This document shows positions 500-53,503 of a stretch of 64,000 nucleotides of DNA, piece after piece (the stretch's first letter is position 1; every line of letters starts with the position of its first letter). The position numbers and the translations under genes were made by a program. Source of the stretch: a virus; IMG/VR virus record IMGVR_UViG_3300034351_000048, positions 1 to 64,000 of that record; one strand, given 5' to 3'. Under the pieces are notes generated by a model that did no database searches, was not told where the DNA came from, and worked only from the letters and a program-made list of their open reading frames with translations.

Positions 500-526
500 G
501 TAGTAATAATCAACTATTATCACGAC
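500..526. repeat. 27-bp inverted repeat site 1 (GTAGTAATAA-tcaacta-TTATCACGAC)
   Basis: 10-bp arms, 7-bp spacer, 1 nt after the stop of the upstream ORF; matches five other sites. Confidence 0.8.
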
Positions 527-609
527 AATAAGAAATAAGAATTTATGGAAAAAAAAGCTAAGGTTTATAAAAGTTATTTAATTTTTCACAAAATAATCTA
601 TGTATAAAT

Positions 610-637
610 TTGACTTATTTCATAATATTATTATATT
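610..637 (+). promoter_or_regulatory. sigma70-type promoter
   Basis: TTGACT-N16-TATATT upstream of the KilA-N gene. Confidence 0.55.
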
Positions 638-666
638 TTAAATATCTAAATTTAAAGGATTATATT

Positions 667-1278
667 ATGAAAACAGAAGTAATAATGAAACGTAAATTAT
701 TTGATAGTGAAATATCACAGAAAAGTAAATCAGAGTTTTTTAGTGCAACTGACTTGGTTAGAGCGGGTAATAAATGGAGAATTAACAATAATATGCAGCC
801 TTTCAATATGAGTGAATGGCTTCAACAAAAAACAACAAAAGAATTTATAAATGCATTAGAAAATAAATATGGAACTGTTAAAATATCAGGTAAAGGTAGA
901 GGTAAGCATACGTGGGTGCATCCTTTCTTATTTATCGATATGGCATTGGCTATAAACCCACAATTAAAAATTGAGGTATATGATTGGTTATACGACCACT
1001 TATTAAAATATCGTAATGATAGTGGAGACAGTTATAAAAGAATGTGTGGGGCGTTATATGAAAATATGACTAATAAAAGAGAATTTCAAAATTATATAAA
1101 AGAAGTATCAAGGGAAATTCGCAAAGCTTGTGGTGTGGAAGATTGGCAAACAGCAACAGAGAATCAACTTGAGTTAAGAGATAAAATTCATGATAATATT
1201 GCTTTATTATCAGATGTTCTTAGAGATAACAAACAATCTGTTAAATTGAGCATATTAAAAACATTTGATAGGAGGTAA
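667..1278 (+). CDS. KilA-N domain DNA-binding protein
   Basis: FFSATDL...WLQQKTTKEFI...GRGKHTWVHPFLFIDMALAINPQLKIEV pattern; AAGGA before ATG 667 (the track TTG at 610 lies in the promoter). Confidence 0.85.
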   Translation: MKTEVIMKRKLFDSEISQKSKSEFFSATDLVRAGNKWRINNNMQPFNMSEWLQQKTTKEFINALENKYGTVKISGKGRGKHTWVHPFLFIDMALAINPQLKIEVYDWLYDHLLKYRNDSGDSYKRMCGALYENMTNKREFQNYIKEVSREIRKACGVEDWQTATENQLELRDKIHDNIALLSDVLRDNKQSVKLSILKTFDRR

Positions 1279-1573
1279 TATGTTTGAAATTTTATATATT
1301 AGTATCGAAATGTTAAAATATATAATAGGGTTTGATTGTAAGATAGAAAAGGAAAATTTCCCAGAAGCTAATTTATTATTTGATAATGGGATTACATCTA
1401 AGATACAAATTCAGGAAGATATCTTAAATCATAATACATATGTTTTTATAAATTTAAATGATGGATATAAGGATGTATGGGAGAAGATAAAATTTGATAC
1501 TATACATAATGATCATTATAATGTAATTAGAAAAGAATTAGAAAGAATAGTTAAAAATTTCATGGCGTATTAG
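1279..1573 (+). CDS. hypothetical protein
   Basis: Track ORF 1265..1573; GGAGG favours a start near 1279. Confidence 0.65.
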
Positions 1574-1582
1574 GAGGATACA

Positions 1583-1957
1583 ATGAAATATATTGAATTA
1601 TATGTGAATAATGAATTTGAGTTTACTATGCCTTTATTTCAAATTCATTATAGCGATGAACTATATGACGAGATGGCACCAAAAGAAAATGCGATACTTT
1701 TATATTTTAGGGATTATGATGATGAGGTGTATCGTGTAAAGATATCAGGAACAAAAGAATATACGCAATATATAGAATTTCTTATAAAGGGGGGAGGTGA
1801 TTTTATCAGGATAGATATAAACACTAAAGATAAAGAATTTTATTACTATTCCTTAGAAGAAAAAGTCCCTACTTTTCAGGTAGTTACACAGAAACTTCGA
1901 GATCATGACTACCACATAAATGAAAATGGTGAGAGTGTATTAGATGAGGAGGAATAA
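1583..1957 (+). CDS. hypothetical protein
   Basis: ORF with AGGAGG RBS. Confidence 0.7.
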   Translation: MKYIELYVNNEFEFTMPLFQIHYSDELYDEMAPKENAILLYFRDYDDEVYRVKISGTKEYTQYIEFLIKGGGDFIRIDINTKDKEFYYYSLEEKVPTFQVVTQKLRDHDYHINENGESVLDEEE

Positions 1958-2127
1958 TGAGTAATTGGTATAAAGTTTATAGATATATCTCTTTACACAT
2001 GGGGTGGTTATATCAAGAAACTGATAGACCTATACCTGAAAATTTATTATCTGATTTATATGAGCTTTTTCCAAAGATAAAGAAAAGAATAATTAAGAAA
2101 TGGTATAAAAACATATTAGAATTATAA
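1957..2127 (+). CDS. small hypothetical protein (56 aa, not in track)
   Basis: GAGGAGG RBS, TAATG overlap, MSNWYKVYRYISLHMGW...LEL*. Confidence 0.6.
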   Translation: MSNWYKVYRYISLHMGWLYQETDRPIPENLLSDLYELFPKIKKRIIKKWYKNILEL

Positions 2128-2136
2128 GGAGGAATA

Positions 2137-2697
2137 ATGAGTGATGAAAATAAGATATTAACATTCAATATAGGTAATAAAATTTATTTTAATGGTGATA
2201 TAGATACAGAAAATGTTAATAAATTTGTAGAAATTTTATATAGTATTAGTGATATTGATATGATCAATCTCGAGAGTAAAACAATAGAATTAAGAATACA
2301 CATAAATTCATATGGGGGTTATTTACATGAAGGTATAAGGCTTATGGAGATTATAAATGCTTATAAAAAGATATATACGGATATAACAATAATAGGCATA
2401 GTAAATTCCATATGTTATTCAGCGGCTGTTATGTTATTATTAACATGTGATAAAAGATATATAGGTAAATTTGGCAGTATTATGATACACCAGAGCCATT
2501 ATGGTTATACAGATTATCACCACCAAAACAAAGCTTATACTGATTTTTCAGAAAACCTTATGAATAAAAAGAAAGAATTTATATTGAGTAAGACAAAGAT
2601 TAATAAAGAACAATTAGAAGAAGCAATGAAAACAGATTTATGGATGGATTGTTATAATGCATTGGAATTAGGATTTGTTGATGAAATTACTGATTAA
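2137..2697 (+). CDS. ClpP-like serine protease (peptidase S14 family)
   Basis: IYFNGDI, INSYGG, CYSAAVML (catalytic Ser), IMIHQ (His), ALELGFVDEI motifs. Confidence 0.85.
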   Translation: MSDENKILTFNIGNKIYFNGDIDTENVNKFVEILYSISDIDMINLESKTIELRIHINSYGGYLHEGIRLMEIINAYKKIYTDITIIGIVNSICYSAAVMLLLTCDKRYIGKFGSIMIHQSHYGYTDYHHQNKAYTDFSENLMNKKKEFILSKTKINKEQLEEAMKTDLWMDCYNALELGFVDEITD

Positions 2698-2787
2698 AAT
2701 TCACTTAGTGTTATCTATCCTATAAGCAAACAACAACCCTTCAATAAATTTTATTTGAATTTTTTTTAATATTTTTTATAAATTTTG

Positions 2788-2846
2788 TTGACTTTTTATA
2801 ATTATGTAATTATATTATTATATGTAAGACTTAAGAAAGTTTTACA
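2788..2846 (+). promoter_or_regulatory. strong early-type promoter with 5' hairpin
   Basis: TTGACT-N17-TATATT followed by TGTAAGACTT-aaga-AAGTTTTACA; near copy at 9709-9767. Confidence 0.75.
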
Positions 2847-2874
2847 ATAAATAAAAAGATAAGAGGTAAGAAAA

Positions 2875-3828
2875 ATGAAAAAATTAAATAATTTAAAAAA
2901 AGAATTAGAAGAAAATAATTTTGGGGTTGTATTATCAAACGGTGTTATGACAATAACACATAATGCTTATGATGTTACATATAATGAATATGAAAATTTT
3001 GTTGTAGAGAAACTACGACAATTTACACTAACAAATGATGAGAGATGTGTTGGAAACAGTAATATCCATTACAGCACTCAATTTGGTGGAAGTTGGAAAT
3101 TTTATAGTCACTATGTTACGGATGGCTGGTTAAAAGTCGTTTTTGCCGAAACTAACAAAGACGATGAAAAAATAATTTTCTTATACAAGAACATTAAAAA
3201 TATTGAAATTGAAAATATCCTAAAAAAGGAAGAAAAAGAACGACAGAGAAAAAAAGAAGAAAAACTACGAGAAAAAGAAGAACAACAAAAGAACTATAAA
3301 AAGCTGTCATTCTCAAACGAAAACGAAATTGAAATTTTTTTCAAAAACCTTGTAGAAAAAATAAATGGAACCCAATTCGATTATATTGGGTTTAACATGG
3401 GTAAATTAGAAGAAACTTTTCAAATTTTGTTTATAAAAGAAGATTTAATCGTAATTGAAAAATTATGGGAAAAAAATTATAATAATATTTGGAAATATAC
3501 CAACATTAAAAAATATTGGGATGAGTCAATCTCATTTTCGGAAATGAGGAACTTTGACAATTACTCATACACCTGTCATAACCACAAAGATAGATGTAAT
3601 CATGCTATTAGGCAGGATCGGCACTACTCTCTCTTAATGAAAAACGGCAAGGCTGTTAAATCCAATAACCATGGCGGTAAAATAGACTGGCAGAGCTATG
3701 TAAAAAAGCATAGTAACAACGCCATAGTAATAACAAAGGATGAATGGGATTTTGACGATGCCCCAATCTCCTCTTATATGGAAATGCATCTTTATTATAA
3801 AGGCAAAATCATTAGAACTGTCTTATAA
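2875..3828 (+). CDS. hypothetical protein with own promoter (317 aa)
   Basis: ORF with GAGG RBS and a central charged coiled coil. Confidence 0.75.
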   Translation: MKKLNNLKKELEENNFGVVLSNGVMTITHNAYDVTYNEYENFVVEKLRQFTLTNDERCVGNSNIHYSTQFGGSWKFYSHYVTDGWLKVVFAETNKDDEKIIFLYKNIKNIEIENILKKEEKERQRKKEEKLREKEEQQKNYKKLSFSNENEIEIFFKNLVEKINGTQFDYIGFNMGKLEETFQILFIKEDLIVIEKLWEKNYNNIWKYTNIKKYWDESISFSEMRNFDNYSYTCHNHKDRCNHAIRQDRHYSLLMKNGKAVKSNNHGGKIDWQSYVKKHSNNAIVITKDEWDFDDAPISSYMEMHLYYKGKIIRTVL

Positions 3829-4038
3829 TCTAAAATGCCGGAGTTACAAACATTCTAATTAATTACAAACCCCGTAAATTTCGATACCTTTTTGTTACTT
3901 ATCACATTACATATCTATACTACAAAGCATTTCACAAAATATTATCTATTCAACACAAACAAATTTTAATAAAATTCTTTACAAACCCGTGAATTTTTAG
4001 TAATATTTATATATATATTAAAATTTTTGGAGGAATTT

Positions 4039-4218
4039 ATGAATAATAAGAAAGAAAATCAACCCCCAAATCTAAGAGAAGCTACCACATGCACAGATTG
4101 TAAACATTATAAATATCAAGATTTGGGATGCGGAGAATGGGAAGAAATTTGTCAAAAATATGATTTTATAATAAACGAATATTTAATTTGTGATGATTTT
4201 GAGGAGGTAAGTAAATGA
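4039..4218 (+). CDS. small Cys-rich putative metal-binding protein
   Basis: PPNLREATTCTDC...C...ICDDFEE; GGAGG before ATG 4039. Confidence 0.7.
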   Translation: MNNKKENQPPNLREATTCTDCKHYKYQDLGCGEWEEICQKYDFIINEYLICDDFEEVSK

Positions 4219-4511
4219 ATAAATATAAAAAAATTGTTAAAGATATATGTAAAAATTTGGATATAAATTATTTTAAGATAGAATATAAATCAGAAAGTGA
4301 AAATGTTGTTGATTTTTATGTAAGAATGAATGATGGGGATTATACTTACTCTTATTATTTTCTTATAGGAGAAGCACCCAGATGTTCTTTACATCTAAAA
4401 ATAGATAAGGCAAATGATTGTATATTTAGAAATGTTTATTATAAATTAGATGATTTTAAATTGACTTTAGAAACTGTGATGAAATTATTATTATGTAGAG
4501 ATAATTATTAG
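4215..4511 (+). CDS. hypothetical protein
   Basis: ORF; its last codons (CRDNY*) are encoded by repeat site 2. Confidence 0.7.
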   Translation: MNKYKKIVKDICKNLDINYFKIEYKSESENVVDFYVRMNDGDYTYSYYFLIGEAPRCSLHLKIDKANDCIFRNVYYKLDDFKLTLETVMKLLLCRDNY

Positions 4512-4521
4512 TTATCACTAC
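4495..4521. repeat. 27-bp inverted repeat site 2 (GTAGAGATAA-ttattag-TTATCACTAC)
   Basis: Overlaps the stop of 4215..4511; followed by an AAGGAG RBS. Confidence 0.8.
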
Positions 4522-4540
4522 AAACAAAAAAGGAGATGTT

Positions 4541-5020
4541 ATGTTACCACAATATTCATTCGAAACGATACAAAAAATGAGAGAAATCGAATTAGAGAAT
4601 AATTTAAAAAATAAAGAATTTGATTCTTTATTAAATAATTACAAATCAAAAAAAGTATGTGATTTTGTTATTGGAGACCAAATTAAAATCAAAGATGACT
4701 TTTATTATGGTTCTTGGTTTTATGAACATTGGGATTTAAATTCTTTGTTAGATAATCGTAGATATGATTCACCTACTTATATAAGTATGAAACATGATGT
4801 CAATAGAGAAATGAGATCGATAGAAAAATTCAGGAATTCTTTTAATCCTAATGAATTTATAGATTCTTTAAAAGGTAAAATCTTTATTATAAAGGATATC
4901 GTATTTACAAAAGAAGGTATGTATTTTGATCAACACGTTATAAGAATGCATATCCAAGATGAGAATTATAGGAGTTATTATATAACTGGTTATGAAATAG
5001 AAAAAACCACCCACGATTAA
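4541..5020 (+). CDS. hypothetical protein
   Basis: ORF with AAGGAG RBS. Confidence 0.7.
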   Translation: MLPQYSFETIQKMREIELENNLKNKEFDSLLNNYKSKKVCDFVIGDQIKIKDDFYYGSWFYEHWDLNSLLDNRRYDSPTYISMKHDVNREMRSIEKFRNSFNPNEFIDSLKGKIFIIKDIVFTKEGMYFDQHVIRMHIQDENYRSYYITGYEIEKTTHD

Positions 5021-5029
5021 GGAGGGATT

Positions 5030-5353
5030 ATGAAGGGTAAAGAATATGTCATGATAGATAATAAAAAATATTATTATGATTATATTATATTTGATTACAG
5101 GGATTTAATCGAAAACCCACCAATTGATAATTTGTATAACATTCATTTCTATAGATACATACCTATGTTTTTACGTATATATCGCACGAATCCAAGAAAT
5201 GAAGCTTATGTAGTAGGGTTTTCTATAAAAATAAGTAATGAGAATCTTTGTAAATATATAAATTATCGTAAAAAAGATTATAAAAAGTATGTTATAAATT
5301 ACATAAATAAACACTATAAAAATGAACTAAAAATAAATTGTCGTGATATGTGA
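5030..5353 (+). CDS. hypothetical protein
   Basis: ORF; its last codons (CRDM*) are encoded by repeat site 3. Confidence 0.7.
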   Translation: MKGKEYVMIDNKKYYYDYIIFDYRDLIENPPIDNLYNIHFYRYIPMFLRIYRTNPRNEAYVVGFSIKISNENLCKYINYRKKDYKKYVINYINKHYKNELKINCRDM

Positions 5354-5366
5354 ATATTATCACTAC
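5340..5366. repeat. 27-bp inverted repeat site 3 (GTCGTGATAT-gtgaata-TTATCACTAC)
   Basis: Overlaps the stop of 5030..5353; followed by an AAGGAGG RBS. Confidence 0.8.
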
Positions 5367-5380
5367 AAAGGAGGATATTT

Positions 5381-6363
5381 ATGCTTAATTTCAATACAAT
5401 TGCTTATTATAGATTAGAGTTTCTTTCCTATAAAGATTGGTATAATTTCTATATGTATTATAGTTTTAAATACTTTCCATTTGAGATAGATTCTTTAAAT
5501 ATAAACGTATTAGCAAATGTAGTGCATAACCGAACTATAAAGGGCATGTATTGTAATTATTTTCAAATGTGATAAGGAGAAAAGCAATGGCTAAAAAAGA
5601 AATAGAAAATTTAAAAAAGCATAACAAATTTAAAGTATATGAGGAAGATGGGTATGAACATCAACAAAGATGTAAACTAAGTTTATACAATCATGGTTAT
5701 AGAACACCTATTAACGGTTGTTCAAATTGCAAATATTATATAAAAGATAAAGGTTATCGAAATAAATATAAGTGTGAAATATTCGATATACAAACAGATG
5801 CGGTTGGTATATGTGATTTATATGAAGATTATTAAGGAGATATAAAATGAAATTATTATTACGAATTTTAGACTGTATCGTTATCAAATATTTAAAAAAA
5901 TATTATAATATTATAATAGGGTATGATGAAAAAAAGGAACTTAAGGGTTTAGCCTTACGCAACAGAGTATCGGGTAAAGTTATTTATACAGATAAATATA
6001 TAAAAGATATGGAGAGTAAAAATAATGAATAAATAGGAGGTTCAAATGGCTAAAAAAATGCTATCTTATAAATTCGATGGAATATATGAAATAGTAAATT
6101 TCTTTTATTGTGTTATAGACAATTTTGAATTGAAAATCCCTTTATCCTTTTTCAGAAAATATAATTTTATATTGCGGATAATGCATGACAAAGAATGTGA
6201 TGATAAAGGAAGGATATTACTATATAATAATATAGAAATAATATTAAATCAATTATTTCAAATTAATAATAAATCAAATTTAAAATTTTTCGATGGGGGT
6301 GGGCTATATTATATAATTGATATAAACAAAGAACAAATAAAATTTAAATTATGTATAAGGTAA
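5381..6363 (+). CDS. run of four small hypothetical genes (5381-5572, about 5587-5835 Cys-rich, 5847-6032, 6046-6363)
   Basis: Tightly packed ORFs, each with a GGAG-type RBS. Confidence 0.6.
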
Positions 6364-6523
6364 TATTATGACAGAACTAAAAATGCCGAATAGTAAATTA
6401 AATAAAATACTCAAAAAGAGAACTAACAAAAGAATTAGATATAGTAAAAAGACTTTAATTAATTATGGTGGTTATAAGAAATGGTATGATAAGTGGGGAT
6501 TAATTTAGATTTATATAAACATA

Positions 6524-6787
6524 CTATTCTATATAATGATCATATACAGTAATATACCCATTCGGTACAATCAATCCATTATAATAATCAAAGTTTTCAC
6601 ATATATCATCAAACATATCCGCAAGTTTATTTAAATCTTCTAATGTATTTAATTCTATCCAAATTGAAGTGTTATTAGTAGTATTTTCGGGATCATAAGA
6701 TGTTTTAAATACATGTTTTAATATTTTATTATATCCAGTTAAGGCTTCCTTTTCATCCCATCTTGAAGAACGTAATTTGTAAATCAT
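6524..6787 (-). CDS. hypothetical protein
   Basis: ORF with GGAG RBS. Confidence 0.65.
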   Translation of the reverse strand: MIYKLRSSRWDEKEALTGYNKILKHVFKTSYDPENTTNNTSIWIELNTLEDLNKLADMFDDICENFDYYNGLIVPNGYITVYDHYIE

Positions 6788-6936
6788 TCTATCTCTCCTA
6801 TTTTAACATTACAAAGCTATTAATTTCTTTATTTAAATTATTTAATTTTTTTAGTAGGTATCGTGTATATAACTATAGCTATTATACTAGCAATAATACA
6901 AAACCCCAAAATATATAGTGATATCATAATCACCTC

Positions 6937-7305
6937 CTAATTCGATTTGAAATGATGTTTACATTCAGGAATATCAATATTTTTATATTCATTTGTCTTT
7001 ATAAATTCACTTTCAAAATTCAAATTATCTTTATAAATATATAATTCTATATTCTCACCTTGAAAGTTATGGCCTGCTAAACAGGGTATAACAGGCTCTT
7101 TCAAACTTGGTTGTTCTGGAGCTAACATACATATGAAAAAAGCAACCGCTATAAAACAAAAAATAACGCCTATAACCATTATAAAATCTAACCAATCGGG
7201 TATGTGCTTACCTATTCCACATAATATAGATGGAAGACCTAAACATAAAAATATTACCACACAACACCCTAAAAACCCAAATAAATATATTAAATTACTA
7301 CTCAT
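6937..7305 (-). CDS. membrane protein, two predicted TM helices
   Basis: Two hydrophobic N-terminal stretches; GGAGG RBS. Confidence 0.65.
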   Translation of the reverse strand: MSSNLIYLFGFLGCCVVIFLCLGLPSILCGIGKHIPDWLDFIMVIGVIFCFIAVAFFICMLAPEQPSLKEPVIPCLAGHNFQGENIELYIYKDNLNFESEFIKTNEYKNIDIPECKHHFKSN

Positions 7306-7314
7306 AGAACCTCC

Positions 7315-7770
7315 TTATACAAACCATTCAGGCTTTTTTGTTTTCCAAGATACCATGTATCTCTTTTCATTCATATATAAATCTCTATAAGCTGTTACAA
7401 CATCCTTGTGTTTATGTTGTTCAGTAGTAACATTGGCAAAAGGTGTTAATCCTATTGGTAAATCAGGTGGAGTTAATGTTAAACACATATTGTAGGCTTT
7501 GTGGTTATAGCCATGATTAAATCTTTTTCTATACTCATTGTTAAGATGTTTTGTAAGCTCTCTAAGATACAACCAATTTGTTTTACTTTCATTACACCAC
7601 TTAACAACAGGGTGATATTCATGTGTCATTTTATACCCACAATCCAGGCCGTTTAATCGGCACACAGTAGACAATATCTGTGTATATTCTGTAATCATTT
7701 TTATTACATGTTTATCGCAATGGTAAGAAGCATTAGTTTTTGGATCTAAGTCTAAAATAAATATGTTCAT
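7315..7770 (-). CDS. pyrimidine-dimer DNA glycosylase (T4 endonuclease V-like)
   Basis: MNIFILDLDP...HCDKHVIKMITEYTQILST...HPVVKW...AYRDLY...W signature. Confidence 0.85.
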   Translation of the reverse strand: MNIFILDLDPKTNASYHCDKHVIKMITEYTQILSTVCRLNGLDCGYKMTHEYHPVVKWCNESKTNWLYLRELTKHLNNEYRKRFNHGYNHKAYNMCLTLTPPDLPIGLTPFANVTTEQHKHKDVVTAYRDLYMNEKRYMVSWKTKKPEWFV

Positions 7771-7779
7771 ATAAACCCC

Positions 7780-8413
7780 CTAAAATAAATTCAATTGATC
7801 TTGTAAGTTCATTGGTAAATATTTAAGGAATTCGTTATCTAAGATCAATCTTATATCCTTTTCAAGCTGTTTCAATTCAGGTTCGTTAATGTCCCATTCC
7901 TCATACTCACATTCTATTAACGATTCGATTGTTTTTTCTAAATTAGAATCAGTTTCTAATATCAGTTCATAATACCATGAATGATGATAGTTTATATTAA
8001 ATTCATCTTCAATCAAATAATTTAATTGTGTTTCTATATGATTTTTGAATGTTTTGTAATTATCGTATAGTTCTAAAGTTATTTTTGTTAATTGTTTGTC
8101 TAAGCTATTCATAATCATCTCCTTATTTTACCCATTCTGTTTTTATTAATTTTTTATAAATATCTATTAATTCTCTTACTCTGTTATTCCATCCAATATA
8201 ATTAGTAACATAACAAACCCGTTTTTCACTATATTCCATATTTTTTATTTCTTCTTTTATTTTTTCAAATATTTCATAAGAACTTCCATGCATATCATGG
8301 CTTTCGTAATATTTCAAATCAATATTACGTTTCATATAATGTTCATACAACATATCTTCTAATGTATGAATCATCCATTCTTTTTCATTTGCATATAAAC
8401 TTAAATTATACAT
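7780..8413 (-). CDS. two hypothetical proteins (7780-8118, 8123-8413)
   Basis: ORFs with GGAG RBS. Confidence 0.6.
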
Positions 8414-8493
8414 ATAAAATCTCCTTTTTTATAATAATATAGGGTGATGTTTGATCTCCACCACCCCGATCTATGTTAATGCTTATATTAACA

Positions 8494-8522
8494 ATAATAA
8501 TCATTTTATTATAAAAAGTCAA
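8494..8522 (-). promoter_or_regulatory. sigma70-type promoter
   Basis: TTGACT-N17-TATTAT, TTGACTTTTTATAAT class. Confidence 0.65.
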
Positions 8523-8534
8523 CAAATTTTAAAT

Positions 8535-8566
8535 AAAAAAATAGGAGTATAAAATAATATACTCCC
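8535..8566 (-). terminator. intrinsic terminator
   Basis: GGGAGTATA-ttattt-TATACTCCT followed by ATTTTTTT. Confidence 0.7.
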
Positions 8567-8666
8567 GAAATGTTTTTTCTGAGGTAAAGCAAAGCAATGA
8601 ATTCAAAGAATTCCATATTAAAATAATAAAATTTGTGGAATTTACAAATATTTAAGGTAAGAATTT

Positions 8667-9467
8667 TTAATTTTCAATCAATTTTAAGTATTGGTTTTTG
8701 TCTTTTTCACACATACACTTAATGTAATCATCACTTTCTATTTCTTTTGGTTTATCTTGACCTACCAATGCACCGAGTTTTTCCATAATAGCTTTTATAT
8801 TTTGGTAAATTTCTTTATAAGGAATACCCTCATCTATTTGTTTAATCATTTCTTTCATTGAGGTGCTTTCAGCAACTGTAATCTTAGCTAATTGAACATA
8901 ATCACAACAATCCCTAAGATTTTTATTGATTTTGTTTAGAGAATCTACACGAAATAAAGCTTTATTTATCATTTTTGTGATTAACATAAAGTATTTATCC
9001 GCGTGTTTACTTCCATTTTCTTCCGCATATTTCTGAAAAGCACGTATTCCATCTGTTAATTCATGCCTTTGTAGTTTCCCTTTTGTTCTTGCGTCAATCC
9101 ATTCTTGGTTATGATGATTTTCTTGTATATTTCGTAATTGTTTATCACGTTCAATAAAATATTTTCTTATACATCTTGCTAAATTATTATTTTCAGTCAT
9201 ACCAAGTTCTTTTGCCATATCAATAGATACATGATATTCTTTTTCAGGGCGGCCTTTAGATTTAACGTCATTTTTGACGATAATTATATAGTCTTCTTGT
9301 TCAATAAACCCATAATCCTTGATTCTCCTTTGTATCCATTTAGAGAATTCAGTTTTTATTTCTAAATATTCCCATAAATCCCTTGAATTTACAGTGTCTA
9401 TTTGTAATTTTTTGTTGTTTTCGATTTTTACTAAAGATTCAAACTCTTCTTTTTTAAATTGTTTCAT
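8667..9467 (-). CDS. AntA/AntB-family antirepressor-like protein
   Basis: VNSRDLWEYLEIKTEFSKWIQRRI..YGF...DY...EYHVSIDMAKEL...RKYFIE; paralogue of 59365..60198. Confidence 0.85.
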   Translation of the reverse strand: MKQFKKEEFESLVKIENNKKLQIDTVNSRDLWEYLEIKTEFSKWIQRRIKDYGFIEQEDYIIIVKNDVKSKGRPEKEYHVSIDMAKELGMTENNNLARCIRKYFIERDKQLRNIQENHHNQEWIDARTKGKLQRHELTDGIRAFQKYAEENGSKHADKYFMLITKMINKALFRVDSLNKINKNLRDCCDYVQLAKITVAESTSMKEMIKQIDEGIPYKEIYQNIKAIMEKLGALVGQDKPKEIESDDYIKCMCEKDKNQYLKLIEN

Positions 9468-9591
9468 AGTGTGAGTTCCTCACCATATTAAAATATCATT
9501 CACAAAGTGAACGTAGGCACATATTCCAATATGGTGAGTTTAAATGAGTGCCCATTTAGCCTAAAACCACCAATATTTTTATATGAACCTA
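9468..9591 (-). ncRNA. structured 5' leader A (candidate RNA switch)
   Basis: Long hairpin, loop UGGGCAC complementary to downstream GUGCCUA, small hairpin CGUUCAC-UUU-GUGAAUG, and CUCACCAUAUU pairing with RBS-proximal AAUAUGGUGAG. Confidence 0.7.
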
Positions 9592-9597
9592 CTATAT

Positions 9598-9626
9598 AAT
9601 ATACAAAATTTATCCAACAAAGTCAA
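9598..9626 (-). promoter_or_regulatory. sigma70-type promoter of the antA leader
   Basis: TTGACT-N17-TATATT. Confidence 0.7.
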
Positions 9627-9708
9627 ATTTTAGAATTCAAACTCTATCAATACTGAAAAGATTTTATAAAAATTATAAAAAATTATTTAAATTTATTTTA
9701 CAAAAGTG

Positions 9709-9767
9709 TTGACTTTTTATAATTATATTAGTATATTATTATATGTAAGGCTTAAAAAAGTTTTACA
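9709..9767 (+). promoter_or_regulatory. strong early-type promoter with 5' hairpin
   Basis: TTGACT-N17-TATATT; 9694-9737 is a 44-bp perfect inverted copy of 16974-17017. Confidence 0.75.
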
Positions 9768-9797
9768 AAAAAATTAAAAAAAAGAGAGGTAAAGAAA

Positions 9798-10897
9798 ATG
9801 GAAACAAAAAAAATTACAAAAAAAGTAAGAAGATCAATCAAAGAAAAGATATTAAACACTATCGAACAACATGAAAAAAGGTCAAAAAGTTATTTCTGGA
9901 AACCCAACACCAACGCTGGTGGAAGAAGATCAATAGAAAATAAATTTAAAATTGACCATCCTTCTTATTCCTTTACACATCAAGGGATAAAATATGAAAT
10001 AATTACAAGTTTAGATGTATCATGTAAGAATTATTACTATTCTTTGTCTGTATATGTAGATGCAGAAAAGAAAAATATTAAAACATTAAAAAAACTTATA
10101 TGACAAAATAAGGTTTTCGGTAATCCTTAAAACCGAAAATAACCATAAATGGAGGAGATTTTTATGGAAACAAAAACAAATGCAGAGCAAATCTGTAAAA
10201 GTTTTGTAGCTATAGCTGCAAACTATTCAAGAGAGCTAAGAATTTTAGAAAAAGATTACAAAAGCTTCCTAAATTATATTCTAAAGGAAGCTGACAAGCT
10301 ACCTGAAAGAGTAAAAGCAAAAATTATAAGCAAAATAAAAAAATTGGAGGGAATAGATGAATGATTATTTTAATATCAGAAAAATCAATAAATTACAATG
10401 TAAAAACTGCCTATATTTCAATAAATACAAATGTGATAAAGGGATTAATATAAACAAACAAATATGTAAATTTAATATATTCTTTAAATCTGAAAAAATA
10501 AAAAAGGAGACAACTTATGTTAAATAAGGAAGTTAAAGAGAGAAAATACAATATACATGAGTATGAAAACTATACAGAAAAAGAAGCTATACTTGAAAAA
10601 ATACATATGTATAGGTTAGCAAAAACGCCTGAATGGGAAATAAGAGAAAGGCTTATAGATAAAATTTCTAAAGAGTATATATACTTATTACCAACACAAG
10701 AAAGACCCGTATTAGATAAAATTGAAAGGGTTGAATATAAAACATCAGACGATCCTTTTGATCACAGTTATGGATACTATTATAAAGCCTATTTTAAAAA
10801 TAGTGAAATTGTTGCGGAATTCGGTGAAAGTGATATTGATGATGTATTAAAGGATTATTCAGGTATAATAACTGAGAAAGACATTAGAAAAGCTTAG
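9798..10897 (+). CDS. four hypothetical genes (9798-10103, about 10164-10364, 10357-10527 Cys-rich 56 aa not in track, 10517-10897)
   Basis: Contiguous ORFs with RBSs downstream of the 9709 promoter. Confidence 0.6.
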
Positions 10898-11286
10898 ATT
10901 TAATTTGTTCAAGCAATTCTTTGTAATTACTTTCCAACTCTTCCAAAGAATCAAAATCATAATTTTCTTTATTATCCTCAATTATAACAGTTATATAAAA
11001 ATAAGGATTATGCTTACAATTTAAGATATCTCTCCAAGGTTTTTCATTAAAATCCATATAAATTTCCCATACCTTATTATCAGGTAGATTTATTATCTCA
11101 TTTTTAATTTTTATTATCATCTTTTCCTCCATTTTTATCTTTAAAATCGTCACAAATATGGCTTTCATCTACACGAATTTTATATTTTTTACATTCGTTA
11201 TATGAAAGTTTTTGTGAGTCTATTTCTTTACATTTAACACATTCTAAACAAGAGATTACTTCTCTAAAATTAGGTGCTTGTTTCAT
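10884..11286 (-). CDS. two small genes (10884 to about 11120 hypothetical; 11104-11286 Cys-rich)
   Basis: 11104..11286 carries APNFREVISCLEC...C...ICDDFKD. Confidence 0.6.
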
Positions 11287-11900
11287 AGATTTTCCTCTTT
11301 AATTATAATTTTATTTATAACTTTTTTCACATTAGCTGTCAATTCCCTTACTGTAAGTTGTTTTTCATTGTTATACGGTTTTACATAATGAACAGAATTA
11401 TTTTTCAATTTACCATAATAGTATTTTATGGCATATAGATAAGCTTTATTCAGTTTCTTTAAATCTAAAGAAGATATATTCCAAGATTCATGGTTTCTTT
11501 TCATTAAGTTTTCATAACAATATTCTGATGTATTAGTTATATATATTGTATCGAATTTATCATAATTGCATCTTTCTTCATAATCAATACATTCAAAATT
11601 GAATATTCTATCTTTATTATTAAAACAATTTTTAGTAAAATAAGCATAGTTACTTAATATATATCTATCCGCTATAACATGTTTTTTATTAAGTATTCTT
11701 AATAAGATATCATTATAATCATATCTATCATGTGCATAATTTTCATATGTGTAATATCCTTTATTGGCTTTATCTTTATCTAAAAACACTGGATATTTAA
11801 CAAAATCAAATTTGTTATCATCTAATTCTTTTTGTAAAATATTATATACGGATGATTTACCACATCCATTAATGCCTTCTAACACTATAAGTTTTTTCAA
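11283..11900 (-). CDS. tmk: thymidylate (dTMP) kinase-like protein
   Basis: P-loop LIVLEGINGCGKSS and VIADRYILSNYAY motifs. Confidence 0.8.
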   Translation of the reverse strand: MKKLIVLEGINGCGKSSVYNILQKELDDNKFDFVKYPVFLDKDKANKGYYTYENYAHDRYDYNDILLRILNKKHVIADRYILSNYAYFTKNCFNNKDRIFNFECIDYEERCNYDKFDTIYITNTSEYCYENLMKRNHESWNISSLDLKKLNKAYLYAIKYYYGKLKNNSVHYVKPYNNEKQLTVRELTANVKKVINKIIIKEENL

Positions 11901-11917
11901 ATAAGCCTCCTTATAAA

Positions 11918-11952
11918 TAAAAATAAGCAGTATATAATATCTATATACTGCT
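11918..11952 (-). terminator. intrinsic terminator after the beta clamp gene
   Basis: AGCAGTATATA/TATATACTGCT 11-bp stem followed by a T-rich tract. Confidence 0.6.
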
Positions 11953-11974
11953 CTATAGATTAAAAAATAAAAAA

Positions 11975-13084
11975 TTAAGTGTTTTGTGTTCTCATTAAAG
12001 CAATCAAATGTATATTTTGGAAAGTTTCTTTATTATACAATTCAACCGCAAGATTGTTACTAAACAACAATGTTATTTGATCTGATTCTATAGTAGAGAT
12101 ACCATTCATTAAAAAATCTACATTAATACTAAATTCGGCATTATTTAAAGATTTGTTTATTTTTATCGGGTCTGATTTGAATTCGCCTTTGTTATTTTTA
12201 GCATGTATTATAAGACTGTCTGAAATAGATATTCTAATAGGAGATATATTGTTTCCGTTTTTACTAAACACCTTAGCTTTTTTTAGTTCTTTTAGAATTT
12301 CTGCTTTATTTATTTGTATTTCATTTTCAAATTTTTCAGGTAAAATTCTTTGGTAGTTAATAAAATTACCTTCTATCAAATTACTTATTAGTTCTACTTC
12401 CTCTGATACTCTAAATTTTATAAAGTTTTCTAATATTACAATTTCTATAGTTTTAGAATTAAATTTTAATAGTTCAGGAACTATCCTTTTTGGAACTGTT
12501 ATTCTGAATTCTAAATCGCCGTATTTTTCATCAATGTTTATTTCATATTTGGAAAGAACCTTACCAGAAGTAGCTACAATTGTAATGTAATCAGTCTTTT
12601 TCATTTTCTCTAAACATATACCATTTAAATCAAACCTCATTTCATCTTTACATATAGCATCTTTAACAAATTTAATAGCATTAATCAGCTCATTTGTATC
12701 TATTTCAAACTTTAAAGTTTCTTCCAAATCGTTTAGGATGTAGATTTCATCTTTGTTTTCTTCAATTACCTGAACTACAAATTGATCTTTGTTGATATAC
12801 ATTAGATTTTTATTTACATTTAAATTAACAGTTGAATCTTTGTCTAAACTATTCAAGATATCAAGTAAAAGAGTAGGATCAATAGAGAATATCAAGTCTT
12901 TTTCTTCTTTTATTTCATCTAAGAATAGTAAAACATACTGTTCATTGTTCCTAAAGAATACTTTCAAGGTGTTTTTTTCAACAAAAAACAAAAACTTATG
13001 AAAATGACTTGTATTTTTATCTATTAAATTTCTATACTTACTTAATTTTTCATATAAAAATTCTACATTTGTAGTAAAATTCAT
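11975..13084 (-). CDS. dnaN: DNA polymerase III beta sliding clamp
   Basis: 369 aa; DEMRFDLNGICLE, VATSGKVL, SNLIEGNFINYQRILP, INVDFLMNGI, LIALMR match DnaN motifs. Confidence 0.85.
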   Translation of the reverse strand: MNFTTNVEFLYEKLSKYRNLIDKNTSHFHKFLFFVEKNTLKVFFRNNEQYVLLFLDEIKEEKDLIFSIDPTLLLDILNSLDKDSTVNLNVNKNLMYINKDQFVVQVIEENKDEIYILNDLEETLKFEIDTNELINAIKFVKDAICKDEMRFDLNGICLEKMKKTDYITIVATSGKVLSKYEINIDEKYGDLEFRITVPKRIVPELLKFNSKTIEIVILENFIKFRVSEEVELISNLIEGNFINYQRILPEKFENEIQINKAEILKELKKAKVFSKNGNNISPIRISISDSLIIHAKNNKGEFKSDPIKINKSLNNAEFSINVDFLMNGISTIESDQITLLFSNNLAVELYNKETFQNIHLIALMRTQNT

Positions 13085-13482
13085 TTATTTTCCTCCTCAA
13101 AATCATCGCATATTAAATATTCGTTTATTCCAACTCCATATTTCTCACACTTTTCATAATCCCCTGCCCCCATAATAGGTGTAAAATCATAATATTTACA
13201 TTTAGTACATGTAGTAGCCTCTCTCAAATTTGGGGGGCCTATTTTCTCTAAATATTTGATAGGAACAATCCAGCTGTTTTCTTTTAATTTAACTTCAGTG
13301 TATATTCTATCAGGTATAATATTACTTTCCACAGTATAAGTTGCGGTTACAATTTTATTACTTAGCTCATTTACAAAGCAAGCAAAAGTTTTTATATCTG
13401 TAGTATCGTCCCCGTTGCATAATTTAAACATTGTTTCTATATCTTTGAATTTTACCTTATCACCTTTTTTAAATTTACTCAT
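13081..13482 (-). CDS. hypothetical protein with KFKKGDKVK N-terminus and fused C-terminal Cys-rich module
   Basis: C-terminus PPNLREATTCTKC...INEYLICDDFEE closely resembles the 4039..4218 protein. Confidence 0.7.
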   Translation of the reverse strand: MSKFKKGDKVKFKDIETMFKLCNGDDTTDIKTFACFVNELSNKIVTATYTVESNIIPDRIYTEVKLKENSWIVPIKYLEKIGPPNLREATTCTKCKYYDFTPIMGAGDYEKCEKYGVGINEYLICDDFEEENK

Positions 13483-13485
13483 TTA

Positions 13486-14044
13486 TTACCTCCTTATTAT
13501 CTCTCTTAATTCCCTATTAGATTCTTTTAACATTATATTACGTTTTCTTCTATAAAAATCATTAAGAATAACTGTTCCTTTTGCTATATCTACATATCCA
13601 ATAAAATCTTTTATAGCCCATTCAAATGAATCTAAATAATCTCTGTTAAATTCAGTTTCAGCCACATCTTTTCCAAGTTGAAAGGCTGCGGTTTCTACTC
13701 TTAACAATTCATTTTTATATTGTTCTCTTCTCTGTTCATCTACTATATAAGTAATAAATATAAAGATAAACAGGCAAGATAGGGCAGTAAATAGAACATA
13801 GCGAAAAGTCCATATATCAAACTTTGCATATTTCATTTGATTATTCCTCCTCATAAATCCATATATCATATTTTGGGCATTCACAATAATCTGGAGTTAA
13901 ATTTATCACCAACTCATTATTTTTTTTAATGGTTATTCTTTTAACTCCAGGATTAAATTCAAAATTCTGATCTATAGTCATATTTAAATCACCAAATCTA
14001 TTTTTTATATGTTCTAATTCTTTTATTAAATCCGAGATTTTCAT
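13486..14044 (-). CDS. two hypothetical genes (13486 to about 13836 with a TM helix; 13841-14044)
   Basis: ORF track and RBSs. Confidence 0.6.
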
Positions 14045-14448
14045 TTTATTTCCTCCAAATTCGGTCTAATTAGGTCAAACATGATATCACTTGTTTCTAT
14101 CGATAACTCGCGGATATCTTTTAAGTATTCAAGTTTTTTTGACTTAAAATCAAACCCATTTTCTATTAACAATTTTACAATTTTAGACCTTCGGGTTCTT
14201 ATTGCTAAATGCATAGGCGATTGAGATTCTTTAAATAAATTGACGTCAGCACCATTTTCTATTAGAAGCTTACAAAGTGGATAATCTTTATTATTTATAG
14301 CATACATCAATGAGGTCCAACCCATTGCGTTTATCTTATTTATATCATTAATATCCTTTTCATCAAGTGTTAGAACGTTTTGATTTTTTATTCTATACAT
14401 TAAACTTGTATATTCAAACATATTAAAATATAAATTAATTTTATCCAT
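14041..14448 (-). CDS. ankyrin repeat protein
   Basis: GWTSLMYAINNKDYPLCKLLIENGADVN and SPMHLAIRTRRSKIVKLLIENG repeats. Confidence 0.9.
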   Translation of the reverse strand: MDKINLYFNMFEYTSLMYRIKNQNVLTLDEKDINDINKINAMGWTSLMYAINNKDYPLCKLLIENGADVNLFKESQSPMHLAIRTRRSKIVKLLIENGFDFKSKKLEYLKDIRELSIETSDIMFDLIRPNLEEIK

Positions 14449-14471
14449 TACCTATTTCTCCTTTATTTTTT

Positions 14472-14498
14472 GTAGTGATAATCTTTTGTTAGCACGAC
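14472..14498. repeat. 27-bp inverted repeat site 4 (minus strand GTCGTGCTAA-caaaaga-TTATCACTAC)
   Basis: Supplies the TAA stop of 14489..14932; followed by the AAGGAG of the ankyrin gene. Confidence 0.8.
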
Positions 14499-15176
14499 GA
14501 TTTATTTAAAAACACTTCTATAAAAGCTTCAGCCTTTATATTATCATCTATTTTCTTTTGTTTTCGATTATCCCTATACTTAACAGTTTCTTCATAGATT
14601 ATTGGTTCTAACTCTTCCATTATAGATATAAACTTTATCATATACTTTTCATAATCTGTTTCATGAATATTATTTAATATTATTTCTTCAATATCAAAAT
14701 CTTTGCTAAATATTTTTTGTCTTACTTTCACATCAATACTTTTCAGAAAACCTAATTTGAAACGTATAATTGTAACATATAAATCATCAATATAATGCGA
14801 ATTTATATATTTGAAACTATAATAGTTGTGTTTATATATGCTTTTTAGAATTATCATCAAACAAAATATATTTTTATATTTTATCTTTAGTTCATCTAAT
14901 ACCAATTTTTTATTCATGAATTTATTCCTCATTTAACCATTCGTCATAACACGTTGTATCTCCAATAATTGTATTAGATACATTTAAGTAAGCTTTTTTC
15001 AGTCTTCTTTTAGAATAATCTTTATATTTATTTTTAAACATTTCTAAAAGATCGTATTCCTCATCGTATAGAAAATTAAATATTTGGCATGTTCCTAATA
15101 ACACACCCCCATCCAACTCATCTTTTATTCTTTCATCAAGAAAATCATACATTCTATTTTCTATTTTTGTTTTCAT
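14489..15176 (-). CDS. two hypothetical genes (14489-14932, 14922-15176)
   Basis: ORF track. Confidence 0.6.
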
Positions 15177-15190
15177 TTATATCTCCTTTT

Positions 15191-15220
15191 GTCTTGATAA
15201 TACATGCTTTGTAGCACTAC
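15191..15220. repeat. variant repeat site 5 (minus strand GTAGTGCTAC-aaagcatgta-TTATCAAGAC)
   Basis: Spacer 3 nt longer; shares TGATAATACATGCTT with site 6; contains the TAG stop of 15217..15486. Confidence 0.6.
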
Positions 15221-15486
15221 AAATTCCTTATCCATATAGTATGATTTTTCCAAAAGACATAATCTTTATCATTATGTCCTACAAATCCAGTTTCACCATC
15301 ATCACCAAAAAACTCACCAGAACATTCAGGATGAATGAACATAATTTCTTTTAACCCTAATAATAAGGAATCTATATCAAATTCTCCTTTTATAACAAAT
15401 CCCTTATCTAAAAATAACATATAATCGATATCTTCTTCATGTAATAAATTTTTTGTTTTTTCCAAAATTTCATTTATATAATACAT
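15217..15486 (-). CDS. hypothetical protein flanked by repeat sites 5 and 6
   Basis: ORF with GAGGTG RBS. Confidence 0.65.
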   Translation of the reverse strand: MYYINEILEKTKNLLHEEDIDYMLFLDKGFVIKGEFDIDSLLLGLKEIMFIHPECSGEFFGDDGETGFVGHNDKDYVFWKNHTIWIRNL

Positions 15487-15512
15487 AGTTTCACCTCTAT
15501 TTTATTTTTTTT

Positions 15513-15539
15513 GTAGTGATAATACATGCTTATTATGAC
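15513..15539. repeat. 27-bp inverted repeat site 6 (minus strand GTCATAATAA-gcatgta-TTATCACTAC)
   Basis: 3 nt after the stop of 15543..15809; followed by an RBS. Confidence 0.8.
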
Positions 15540-15542
15540 GAT

Positions 15543-16931
15543 TTATTTATCAGCTATCACAGTAATAATTATATTATGTAAATCATTCCTTATATTGCCA
15601 TAAGAGTCTGATATAAGATGTTTTTTTAAATCATTTATATTATCATATTCTCCATAGACATCATATCGAAAATTTCCATTTATATCTTTATATTCATAAA
15701 TATTTGTTTTTGAATCGTATTGACAATTACATATTATATAATGTTCTTTACCTTCAATATCAAAATCTTGATAATAAAAATAAAGTTTTTTTGATTTTTT
15801 ATCATCCATAAAATCTCCTTAAATTTTAAGAATTTTTTTATCTTTTAAAGTATTATATATATTATAATATATATTCCAATACCAAAAAAAACAGGAGATA
15901 ATATCCAAAACCAAGACCAAGTTATTATATTAGCCACTCTAAGTAATATAAAACATAAAGTCAAAAGTGAAACAGTTGTGGTAAGAATATTAAATATGAT
16001 AATTATAATTTTTCTTGTTTTTTCACTATTCATAATTACCTCTTTATGCTTCCATATGGCTTAATAATACATCTTCTAATATTATTTCTGTATCAGAAGA
16101 ATAATATTCAAACGCTTTATTAACTAAATTTTTCATATCTATATTTTCCTTTATCTTAATATTAACAAAAAAATTTCTAATATCATAATAATTTCTCATT
16201 TTAAAGTAAATATTTTCTGTATCAAGTCGAATTTCCATTATGAAATTCTTTGTGTATATAGTGTTATTTATAATATCTTTAGATAAATCTTGATTAATCT
16301 CTATAAAATCTCCACTTCTTTTCAGTTCGTATAAATCTTTTATGAATTTTTGTGAAATATCATATCTTTCTTTTAATGTTTTCATTTTTCCTCCAATTTT
16401 TTAATATATTTGTCAAAATTTGTGTAAATTTTAGGGAGAATCTTAAAGTTTATTATATCATTTACATTTACTTCAAATTCCCCTAATATATGATCCTCAT
16501 AATCACTCAAGATAAGATTATTTAAAGCATTTTTTATTAATTTATTTCTTTTTTCTTTTAAGTTTGTAGATATATTTTCTTTGTTTTCATGTAAACTTTG
16601 AAATATTATTATCTCAAAATTCACCAACTCGGTTATTTTTGTTTCAATATTAGATACTATTTCACTAATCATAGATCAAATCCTCCATTGTTTCATAAAG
16701 TTTATTATTATTGTCAGTTGATAATGTAGGATTGAATTTCATATATTTATCTTTGAAGTTACTTAAGAAGTCGATAGAAAAAACCCATAATTTATTGTCA
16801 GAGAAAGATAAATATACTTTTTGTTGGTTTATAACGGTTACTTTGATATTATAATAACCTTTTTTGAACAAATAATTCATGTTGTCATGTATTAATTTTG
16901 TTTGTTCGTAAGATAATTCTTGATTTTCCAT
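15543..16931 (-). CDS. five small hypothetical genes (15543-15809, 15845-16033 membrane protein, 16044-16385, 16382-16672, 16665-16931)
   Basis: Contiguous ORFs with RBSs; SWFWILSP two-TM motif in 15845..16033. Confidence 0.6.
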
Positions 16932-16973
16932 TTTTTAATCTCCTATTTTTTATTTTCTAATCTATATGTTATA

Positions 16974-17002
16974 AATATACTAATATAATTATAAAAAGTC
17001 AA
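16974..17002 (-). promoter_or_regulatory. strong early-type promoter
   Basis: TTGACT-N17-TATATT, identical to the promoter at 9709. Confidence 0.75.
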
Positions 17003-17118
17003 CACTTTTGTAAAATATTTTTAAAATAAATTTGAATTTTTTATTTAATGTTTTGTGTGTTTGCTTATTAGAAAAGTAAAATGGGTGGAATTAGAAAAAT
17101 TAAAAAAGAAATTTTATG

Positions 17119-17999: not shown

Positions 18000-18027
18000 A
18001 ATATAACATATTTATTTTAAAAGTCAA
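18000..18027 (-). promoter_or_regulatory. sigma70-type promoter of leader B
   Basis: TTGACT-N16-TATATT with a TG extended -10. Confidence 0.6.
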
Positions 18028-18317
18028 ATATTTAAGTTTAATTTTTTGAACCTCTCATCATTTATAACTTTATTTAGAGCTATTTTAAATAGCCTTGTAA
18101 CATTCGATTTGTTACATTTTAAGACCTTACTTATTCGAACATTCGAGTAATTTTCAAATACACGTAATCCGAATGCTAATTCTTGTTTTTCACTTAACTT
18201 TTCATCAATAATATCCTGAATTGTATGCTTATTTGTTTTATCTTTGAAAAGTTGTCTTATTATATCAATTTTTTTTAATGTGCTTAAATTTTCCATGTTT
18301 TCTAACGTATTTTCCAT
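18024..18317 (-). CDS. sigma70 region-4-like HTH protein
   Basis: LSEKQELAFGLRVFENYSNVRISKVLKCNKSNVTRLFKIALNKV pattern. Confidence 0.65.
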   Translation of the reverse strand: MENTLENMENLSTLKKIDIIRQLFKDKTNKHTIQDIIDEKLSEKQELAFGLRVFENYSNVRISKVLKCNKSNVTRLFKIALNKVINDERFKKLNLNI

Positions 18318-53252: not shown

Positions 53253-53360
53253 TAAAATAAACCCCGAAGTATATAGATCGTAAATGAGGTGGTATCGGGG
53301 TTTATACTAAAAAATATTAAAGGAGATCAAATGAAAAAATTAATTTTCAATATTAGAAAA

Positions 53361-53444: not shown

Positions 53445-53503
53445 AAAATTACCACTTAACGTGGTAAAAACAATTTGCCAAAAAGTATTTTTATCATAAT
53501 TTA

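Follow-up and report, generated by a model that had tools for sequence, protein, structure and literature searches.

Oriented inverted-repeat modules at gene junctions in the accessory region of a mangrove phage genome, a candidate protein-recognised control site

Introduction

Short conserved sequences repeated in the gaps between genes have been described in several groups of viruses. In T4-type phages, the conserved intergenic repeats named PeSL and PmSL proved to be promoters and also form seams for modular shuffling that yields mini-circles; the role of PeSLs as homology patches for such shuffling was proposed and partly shown, and PmSLs use a TATTAT -10 box (PMC2839356, PMC4122927). In the Cluster A mycobacteriophages, the stoperators (bound in phage L5 by gp71) are oriented intergenic repressor sites (PMC6550527, PMC9283540), and in the halovirus HF2 conserved intergenic repeats of 29 and 58 bp were identified as promoters by reporter assays (PMC8707807). 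Here we analyse a family of six inverted repeats, each made of two 10-bp arms around a short spacer, which lie at gene junctions of an uncultured phage. The window, that is, the whole stretch under analysis, comprises bases 1-64000 of the 80,224-bp IMG/VR record IMGVR_UViG_3300034351_000048, and the whole-genome scans reported below cover all 80,224 bp.

Most of the unknown host-takeover and anti-defence genes of phages reside in accessory regions, and the regulation and exchange of these small genes are poorly understood outside T4-type phages and mycobacteriophages. An earlier, sequence-only reading of the window had drawn attention to the repeats and had proposed that they delimit shuffled gene cassettes, or else that they form an mRNA-processing hairpin or an operator. 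We describe the repeats as copies of a single oriented module of ~40 bp, which may be a site of transcriptional control recognised by a protein.

Results

Copies and anatomy of the junction element

A pattern scan for the 10-N7-10 motif, allowing up to 3 mismatches, returned five matches (at 500, 4495, 5340, 14472 and 15513), each with 1-2 mismatches to the motif and none of them a perfect palindrome, where shuffled sequences led us to expect 0.01. A profile built from these five sites recovered a sixth one on the minus strand (15226-15182, E 0.0012) and nothing else in the 80 kb; this site is degenerate, with one change in its proximal half, two in its distal half and a spacing of 10 instead of 7. 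The 3' arm by itself, TTATCACKAC, occurs 5 times in 80,224 bp against 0.22 expected, each time within one of the sites and on the coding strand of the genes around it. The geometry and the copies reported by the sequence-only reading, namely five sites and a degenerate variant with 3 additional nucleotides, were thus confirmed, and the genome-wide motif scan that it had called for added no further copy. All of them are confined to the first 16 kb of the complete genome (1-16 kb; Table 1).

Read in the direction of the genes, the sites represent a single oriented module of ~40 bp, which consists of AAATAAAT, a weak GTMGTGATAA-like half-site, N7, a strong TA-TTATCAC(T/G)AC half-site, AAA and the Shine-Dalgarno (SD) sequence of the next gene. 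The 3' arm, proximal to the ribosome-binding site (RBS), is invariant except for a T/G alternative at one position and continues as AAA, and in four of the six copies the last two bases of the spacer are TA, giving TATTAT. The proximal half-site reads GTAGTGATAA in four copies and GTCGTGATAA in one, whereas the distal halves are all different, the 5' arm carrying one to three changes per copy. Conservation extends upstream of the arms, as copies 3, 4 and 5 have a common AAATAAAT(C/T) and are ~80% identical over 39-43 nt when the flanks are included, and copy 1 displays a shifted version of the AAATAAAT flank. The strong half-site is the RBS-proximal one at 5/5 sites, or 6/6 when the degenerate site is counted.

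Several finer points of the sequence-only reading held in part. The spacer is indeed fixed in length and varying in sequence, with the exception of sites 5 and 6, which both contain GCATGTA along with like neighbouring bases. A mismatch at arm position 3, described as being kept, is seen in four of the five sites, but this position is simply A or C, and is so independently in both half-sites, a pattern to be expected from degeneracy of the half-site and not from pairing. Likewise, the two genes said to end in C-R-D upon reading into the left arm do encode these residues, but N-Y-stop follows them in one gene and M-stop in the other.

A possible split seventh copy (~3905-3945; TTATCAC ... CTACAAAG) was considered in the 210-nt gap after gene 2875-3828, and was set aside as probably a chance occurrence: it has no 5' arm and was missed by the profile. 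Within the same gap, TTATCAC and CTACAAAGCAT stand 14 nt apart and resemble a split 3' block of the element.

Placement at gene borders inside operons

The placement of the element between the stop codon of one gene and the RBS of the next, also part of the sequence-only reading, was confirmed. At sites 1 to 6, the upstream stop codon ends at -1, +17, +14, +10, -3 and +4, respectively, relative to the start of the element, and the next start codon lies 14-26 nt past the element at every site but site 1, which is followed by a 20-codon frame without an SD sequence, a sigma-A-type promoter (610-637) and then a KilA-N gene. The upstream genes enter the element in all three frames and end wherever a stop codon happens to fall. 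Most gene junctions within 1-19.7 kb measure <=20 nt, and the element occupies five of the seven co-oriented junctions of 21-60 nt in this region.

Sites 2 to 6 are distributed over two operons, each headed by a member of a promoter repeat family (70-100 nt, 73-86% identity) in which conserved sequence flanks a consensus TTGACT-17-TATATT promoter. The minus-strand operon (16931->11975) has the beta clamp gene as its last gene and ends at a good terminator (11953-11925). The sites thus lie in the interior of operons and mark neither their starts nor their terminators. When 8-mer families recurring upstream of genes were collected, only two emerged apart from the SD sequence, namely the sigma-A promoter family and the present element, and a profile scan showed that the junction element is missing from the sigma-A promoters.

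Constraint on sequence and spacing

The sense-strand position of the element, between a stop codon and the SD sequence, raises the question of whether it acts as RNA. In such a case, a weak hairpin together with UUAUCACUACAAA would be the site of an endoribonuclease or an RNA-binding protein and would uncouple the stability or translation of the downstream cistron, by analogy with the early RNase III sites of T7 or the RegA/RegB targets of T4. All copies are located on the sense strand, after the stop and 3-15 nt before the SD sequence, their arms are 80% complementary, and a single-stranded ACAAA tail is conserved ahead of the SD sequence, as would suit this explanation; the folds themselves, however, do not. 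Sense-strand folding energies were -4.9, -8.9, -8.2 and -2.1 kcal/mol, site 5 formed no hairpin at all, and z-scores against shuffled sequences ranged from -2.4 to +0.3, the antisense strand folding slightly better (-4.8 to -9.2 kcal/mol). Though 80% of the cells in the alignment of the five copies pair, 10 of 10 arm substitutions break a pair, with zero compensated and hence zero covariation, and the unpaired flanks of the element are conserved as well. No Rfam family matches the element. RNase III sites are stable stems of about two helical turns that compensatory changes maintain; a 10-bp stem is too short for this enzyme, and the stems here fold at -2 to -9 kcal/mol with not one pair compensated. 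The constraint is therefore on sequence and spacing and not on a helix, which weakens the hairpin alternative of the sequence-only reading and leaves an RNA-level element unlikely.

The somewhat better antisense folds bear on a further structural explanation, by which the copies would be weak intrinsic terminators of antisense transcription, made of an antisense hairpin whose 5' arm is preserved without any change and which leads into (G/A)ATTTATTT. Of the ten disruptive changes, three do turn into G-U pairs when the antisense strand is read, and both of the operons that contain sites face convergent operons. Yet the stems are AT-rich and weak, the terminator scan makes no call at them, the sites lie 1-4.6 kb from the points of convergence and the phage uses ordinary GC-rich terminators elsewhere, all of which renders this function highly improbable.

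A candidate control site for transcription

A spacer of fixed length and free sequence, a strong and a weak half-site, and conservation over ~40 bp together characterise DNA sites that proteins recognise. From these sequence features we infer protein binding, an effect on transcription and the likely kinds of binder, and we propose that the element is a protein-recognised DNA control site, which would govern transcription at chosen cistron borders of the two early sigma-A-driven operons. We assign this proposal a probability of roughly 0.4, the two modes of action considered below being taken jointly. The double-stranded site would be bound by a sequence-specific protein, probably encoded by the phage, and the candidates are a regulator of the KilA-N, Bro-N, AntA, Rha or ORF6N type, a 97-aa (amino acid) region-4-like protein, or RNA polymerase carrying a sigma-28-like factor of the phage. 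The latter, related to FliA and WhiG, is a 265-aa protein (genome 70188-70985) that matches PDB 1rp3 (E 1e-10) and scores above the cut-off for Sigma70_r4. The canonical sigma-28 promoter, TAAA-N15-GCCGATAA, is upstream of no gene in the genome; compared with it, the element contains TAAA in copies 1 and 3-5 and has a differing -10 block.

In the first mode (a), the element would be an internal, factor-dependent 'middle' promoter. TATTAT (GATTAT or AGTTAT in two copies) would then be its -10 hexamer at -12 to -7, followed by a CACTAC discriminator, an A at +1 and a leader of 14-26 nt; AAATAAAT would fall at -36 to -29, the element's spacer and distal arm would make up the promoter spacer, and the dyad, centred near -14, would be an operator lying over the promoter core. 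The phage also uses TATTAT as the -10 hexamer in one of its consensus promoters. Given that the element has no -35 hexamer, such a promoter would need a phage factor. Taken separately, we regard an internal promoter with an overlapping dyad operator as possible but doubtful. In the second mode (b), a protein bound at the junction in one orientation would act as a roadblock to elongation, and this orientation-dependent block, proposed by analogy with the stoperators of phage L5, appears rather unlikely when considered on its own. As a by-product of either mode, the ~40 bp of homology may offer a seam at which ORFan cassettes are exchanged through the general recombination of the phage, in the way suggested for PeSLs.

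A number of observations weigh against a control site of this kind. Both a -35 hexamer and a proper extended -10 are absent from the element, the -10-like hexamer follows in part from the ATAAT/ATTAT palindrome itself, and it is altered to AGTTAT at site 2 and GATTAT at site 4. No gene follows site 1 directly. When the core alone was scored in a leave-one-out manner there was no preference for either orientation, such that the orientation signal derives from the flanks and the better half-site. The classical repressor domains HTH_3 and S24 are absent from the complete genome, and with 5 or 6 copies and no usable relatives the statistical power is low.

Known binding sites and promoters were compared with the element and rejected as its identity. 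The TGATAA/TTATCA halves of a Fur box are present, but 7 nt apart and not 3; DnaA, CRP/Rex and Spo0A boxes and the IHF site match poorly; and ECF-type and sporulation-sigma promoters do not fit in spacing or in blocks. An N4-type hairpin promoter was dismissed because the giant virion RNA polymerase is absent from the genome, and a parS-type centromere because no ParB is found in the complete genome.

Possible recombination at the junctions

Tyrosine-recombinase cores have a geometry that the 10-7-10 layout fits, and the sequence-only reading had favoured cassette shuffling on this ground. Were the sites the cores of a site-specific recombinase (integron-like or Xer/pdif-like), supplied by the host or not recognised as such, one would also understand why copies are directly repeated inside each operon, and why sites 5 and 6 have the same spacer around one gene, a residue expected of integration. 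The complete genome, however, has no match to Phage_integrase (searched in six frames), Resolvase or Y1_Tnp (HUH), so that no serine recombinase was found in it, nor the tyrosine recombinase or HUH protein that might have been encoded elsewhere in it. Tyrosine recombinases in general act on partners with an identical overlap, whereas the sites have five different spacers, alike only at sites 5 and 6, and the differences among the others would block strand exchange by classical enzymes.

The signatures of the described systems are missing too. An attC site is a sequence of 57-141 nt with R''/R' cores (RYYYAAC ... GTTRRRY) that is active as a folded bottom strand with extrahelical bases; the arms of the present element start with GTAG/GTCG and end with CTAC/CGAC, its core is 27 nt long, and the R'/R'' cores are absent. 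A dif or pdif site has an 11-bp XerC arm, a 6-bp centre and an 11-bp XerD arm of the TTATG type; here the layout is 10-7-10, with neither the 11-6-11 arrangement nor an XerD arm, and the 3' arm reads TTATCAC, not TTATGT. REP/RAYT elements are imperfect palindromes with a GTAG head, present in many copies and accompanied by a Y1 (HUH) transposase; the present element does have a GTAG/GTCG head, but the phage lacks any Y1_Tnp match, and no genome with multiple copies was found among the 185,579 species representatives covered by the genome pattern scan.

The contigs of the source metagenome likewise reveal no rearranged junctions. Its unitigs are interrupted at the promoter repeats (9708-9723 and 16972-17017) and not at the sites, where no joints were seen, although this is a weak test since contigs drop rare forms. 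Assembly depth is 63 between the breaks at the promoter repeats and 74 outside them. Scans of other genomes and metagenomes returned the pattern as single chance matches only. Recombinase-driven shuffling thus receives no support, and we consider it very improbable that the sites are recombinase cores. The same holds for the more specific scenario of enzyme-driven, integron-like capture of single genes in a virulent phage, in which the sites would be attachment points used by a host or unrecognised phage recombinase and gene 15217-15486 would be the latest cassette, an idea with very little probability.

One hint of cassette behaviour is left. Sites 5 and 6, with their common 7-nt spacer, flank a single 89-aa ORFan (15217-15486), and as this identity is unlikely to have arisen by chance, it shows both copies to go back to one duplication or exchange event, which fits a homology-driven or a site-specific insertion. 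These two sites also bear on a passive origin of the element, whereby the copies would be mere linkers, seams left or reused by the homologous or illegitimate recombination that shuffles ORFan cassettes, with no regulatory role of their own. The running-in of upstream genes by all three frames and the unrelated ORFans on either side of the sites are in keeping with such linkers, and so are the PD-(D/E)XK and RuvC nucleases that the phage encodes. A further repeat shows that duplication at the level of junctions does happen in this genome: a stretch of 77 nt is present at 4144-4220 and, inverted, at 13079-13155 (83% identity over 77 nt), and covers the final ~25 codons of a small domain with paralogous copies (genes 4039-4218, 13081-13482 and 11104-11286) together with the RBS of the next gene, that of the beta clamp among them. 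The randomised spacer between arms of kept sequence and spacing, on the other hand, points to selection on the arms and not to the simple decay of duplicates, and variant joints are absent from the source-sample contigs, again a weak test. We therefore view passive linkers as improbable.

Genome context and relatives

The phage DNA, with a G+C content of about 25%, was obtained from a mangrove metagenome and is present in this source metagenome only (apparently filed twice); no RNA datasets holding it are listed. A 141-bp 'terminal repeat' of the record lies inside one open frame of ~385 aa, which extends from ~79.25 kb (79252-80224) over the end of the record to base 188, so that the record is probably a circularly closed assembly and the 'direct terminal repeat' probably an overlap produced in assembling a circular or permuted genome. 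Immediately upstream, the 16-mer TCCAGAATATGGACAT occurs twice in tandem.

The genome encodes a terminase, a structural module and a protein of tape-measure size, as well as DnaB, primase, a family-A polymerase, the beta clamp, RuvC, a PD-(D/E)XK nuclease, several methyltransferases and a large set of predicted DNA-binding regulators of the AntA, KilAC, Bro-N, ORF6N, Rha and KilA-N types, and the phage looks virulent. In the early/accessory region, 2137-2697, 7315-7770, 11283-11900 and 14041-14448 encode a ClpP/head-protease-like protein, a pyrimidine-dimer glycosylase, a deoxynucleoside kinase and an ankyrin-repeat protein, respectively. A tRNA-Leu(UAA) gene is located at 53360-53445 on the minus strand. 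Open reading frames at genome 68919-69497 and 72709-73365 match the N-terminal and the C-terminal part, respectively, of the N6_N4 DNA methylase model; between them lie a further methylase gene, the sigma-like gene and the gene for the primase, and the two frames represent either a split gene or two partial genes.

A search of phage records for relatives, by megablast with 1-16 kb as the query, gave no match, and locus searches in IMG/VR seeded with the clamp, a 317-aa protein and the terminase found none. For the genes flanking the sites, tblastn against phage records returned no match, nor are these genes paralogous to each other. No clamp homologue exceeds 26% identity, and the relatives retrieved by an alignment-seeded terminase search (<=33% identity) have neither the motif nor an analogous family of palindromes; a 70%-identical terminase (P0005) was located on a Logan contig. 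Pattern scans of IMG/VR, JGI metagenomes and GTDB genomes yielded isolated chance matches, mostly inside coding sequence and lacking the RBS context.

Table 1. Coordinates of the junction sites, the promoter family and candidate binders
Feature	Position	Strand	Remarks
Site 1	500..526	+	GTAGTAATAA-N7-TTATCACGAC; begins 1 nt past the stop of gene 181-498
Site 2	4495..4521	+	gene 4215-4511 crosses the 5' arm (C-R-D-N-Y-stop), stop in spacer; gene 4541-5020 starts 19 nt downstream
Site 3	5340..5366	+	gene 5030-5353 crosses the 5' arm (C-R-D-M-stop); gene 5381-5572 starts 14 nt downstream
Site 4	14472..14498	-	5' arm holds the stop of gene 14489-14917; ankyrin-repeat gene 14041-14448 starts 23 nt downstream
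Site 5	15513..15539	-	stop of gene 15543-15809 3 nt upstream; ORFan 15217-15486 starts 26 nt downstream; spacer GCATGTA
Site 6	15191..15220	-	degenerate, 10-nt spacer: GTAGTGCTAC-N10-TTATCAAGAC; 5' arm holds the stop of gene 15217-15486; gene 14922-15176 starts 14 nt downstream
Sigma-A-type promoter TTGACT-17-TATATT	2788..2816	+	heads the plus-strand operon with sites 2 and 3
Promoter of the same family	16974..17002	-	heads the minus-strand operon 16931->11975 with sites 5, 6 and 4
TTGACT-17-TATATT promoters	~610, 2788, 8522(-), 9709, 17002(-), 18027(-); 53.6, 55.3, 65.5, 74.9 kb		
Promoter repeat spans	2762-2865, 8471-8543(-), 9669-9786, 16974-17042(-); ~53.58, 55.29, 65.47, 74.95 kb		
KilA-N domain protein	669..1278	+	candidate binder; directly downstream of site 1
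97-aa protein	18024..18317	-	candidate binder; weak match to sigma-70 region 4 (helix-turn-helix)

Discussion

If the element both sets transcription at cistron borders and supplies 40 bp of homology for gene swaps, it would be a third type of junction module, after PeSLs and stoperators. It would also provide a handle on the regulon of a KilA-N, Bro or Rha-type regulator or of a sigma-28-like phage factor, proteins for which few DNA targets are known. With six copies, no relatives and an uncultured host, the element is a lead and not a test case.

Among recombination sites, attC and dif/pdif resemble the element in having imperfect inverted arms around a short spacer, placed between the end of one gene and the next gene. 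Unlike an integron, however, the phage has no IntI, and the element has no R'/R'' (GTTRRRY) cores and no architecture of extrahelical bases; unlike Xer dif sites, it is arranged as 10-7-10 instead of 11-6-11, lacks the XerD-arm consensus and has spacers that are mutually unlike. The T7 early RNase III sites are similar in being a handful of hairpin-forming sites between the cistrons of early mRNA, but they are bipartite stems of ~20 bp or more that fold strongly, whereas the stems of the element are 10 bp long, weak and uncompensated.

The resemblance extends further among regulatory repeats. HF2, too, has conserved intergenic repeats in a virus genome; it is, however, an archaeal virus with archaeal promoter elements, and its repeats are conserved across a genus, while the phage described here has no relatives with which to compare. 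PeSL and PmSL are, like the element, short conserved regulatory motifs repeated in the gaps of an accessory (hyperplastic) region, where they adjoin ORFans and follow the orientation of the genes. A PeSL combines a strong sigma-70 promoter (-35/-10, N17) with a GC-rich terminator stem-loop, whereas the element is an AT-rich 10-N7-10 dyad with no -35 and no terminator: AATAAA occupies the -35 position, the sigma-70 scan makes no call at the sites, and the weak AT-rich stem is followed on the sense strand by a run of A, with no terminator call.

Stoperators are conserved sites in short gaps within operons, mostly in one orientation, with an asymmetric recognition block of 13-15 bp, and the element is like them in these respects, with all six sites located at junctions and the strong half facing the RBS. 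The differences are that stoperators are 13-bp and non-palindromic, number tens of copies genome-wide and serve the known immunity repressor of a temperate phage, which also binds an operator at the early lytic promoter, as opposed to six copies in one region, a partner half-site completing a dyad, and a phage with no integrase and no recognisable repressor. To summarize, the element, which is neither integron- or Xer-like nor a stable RNA hairpin, fits best as a variant within a known class, that of repeated regulatory junction motifs in phage accessory regions.

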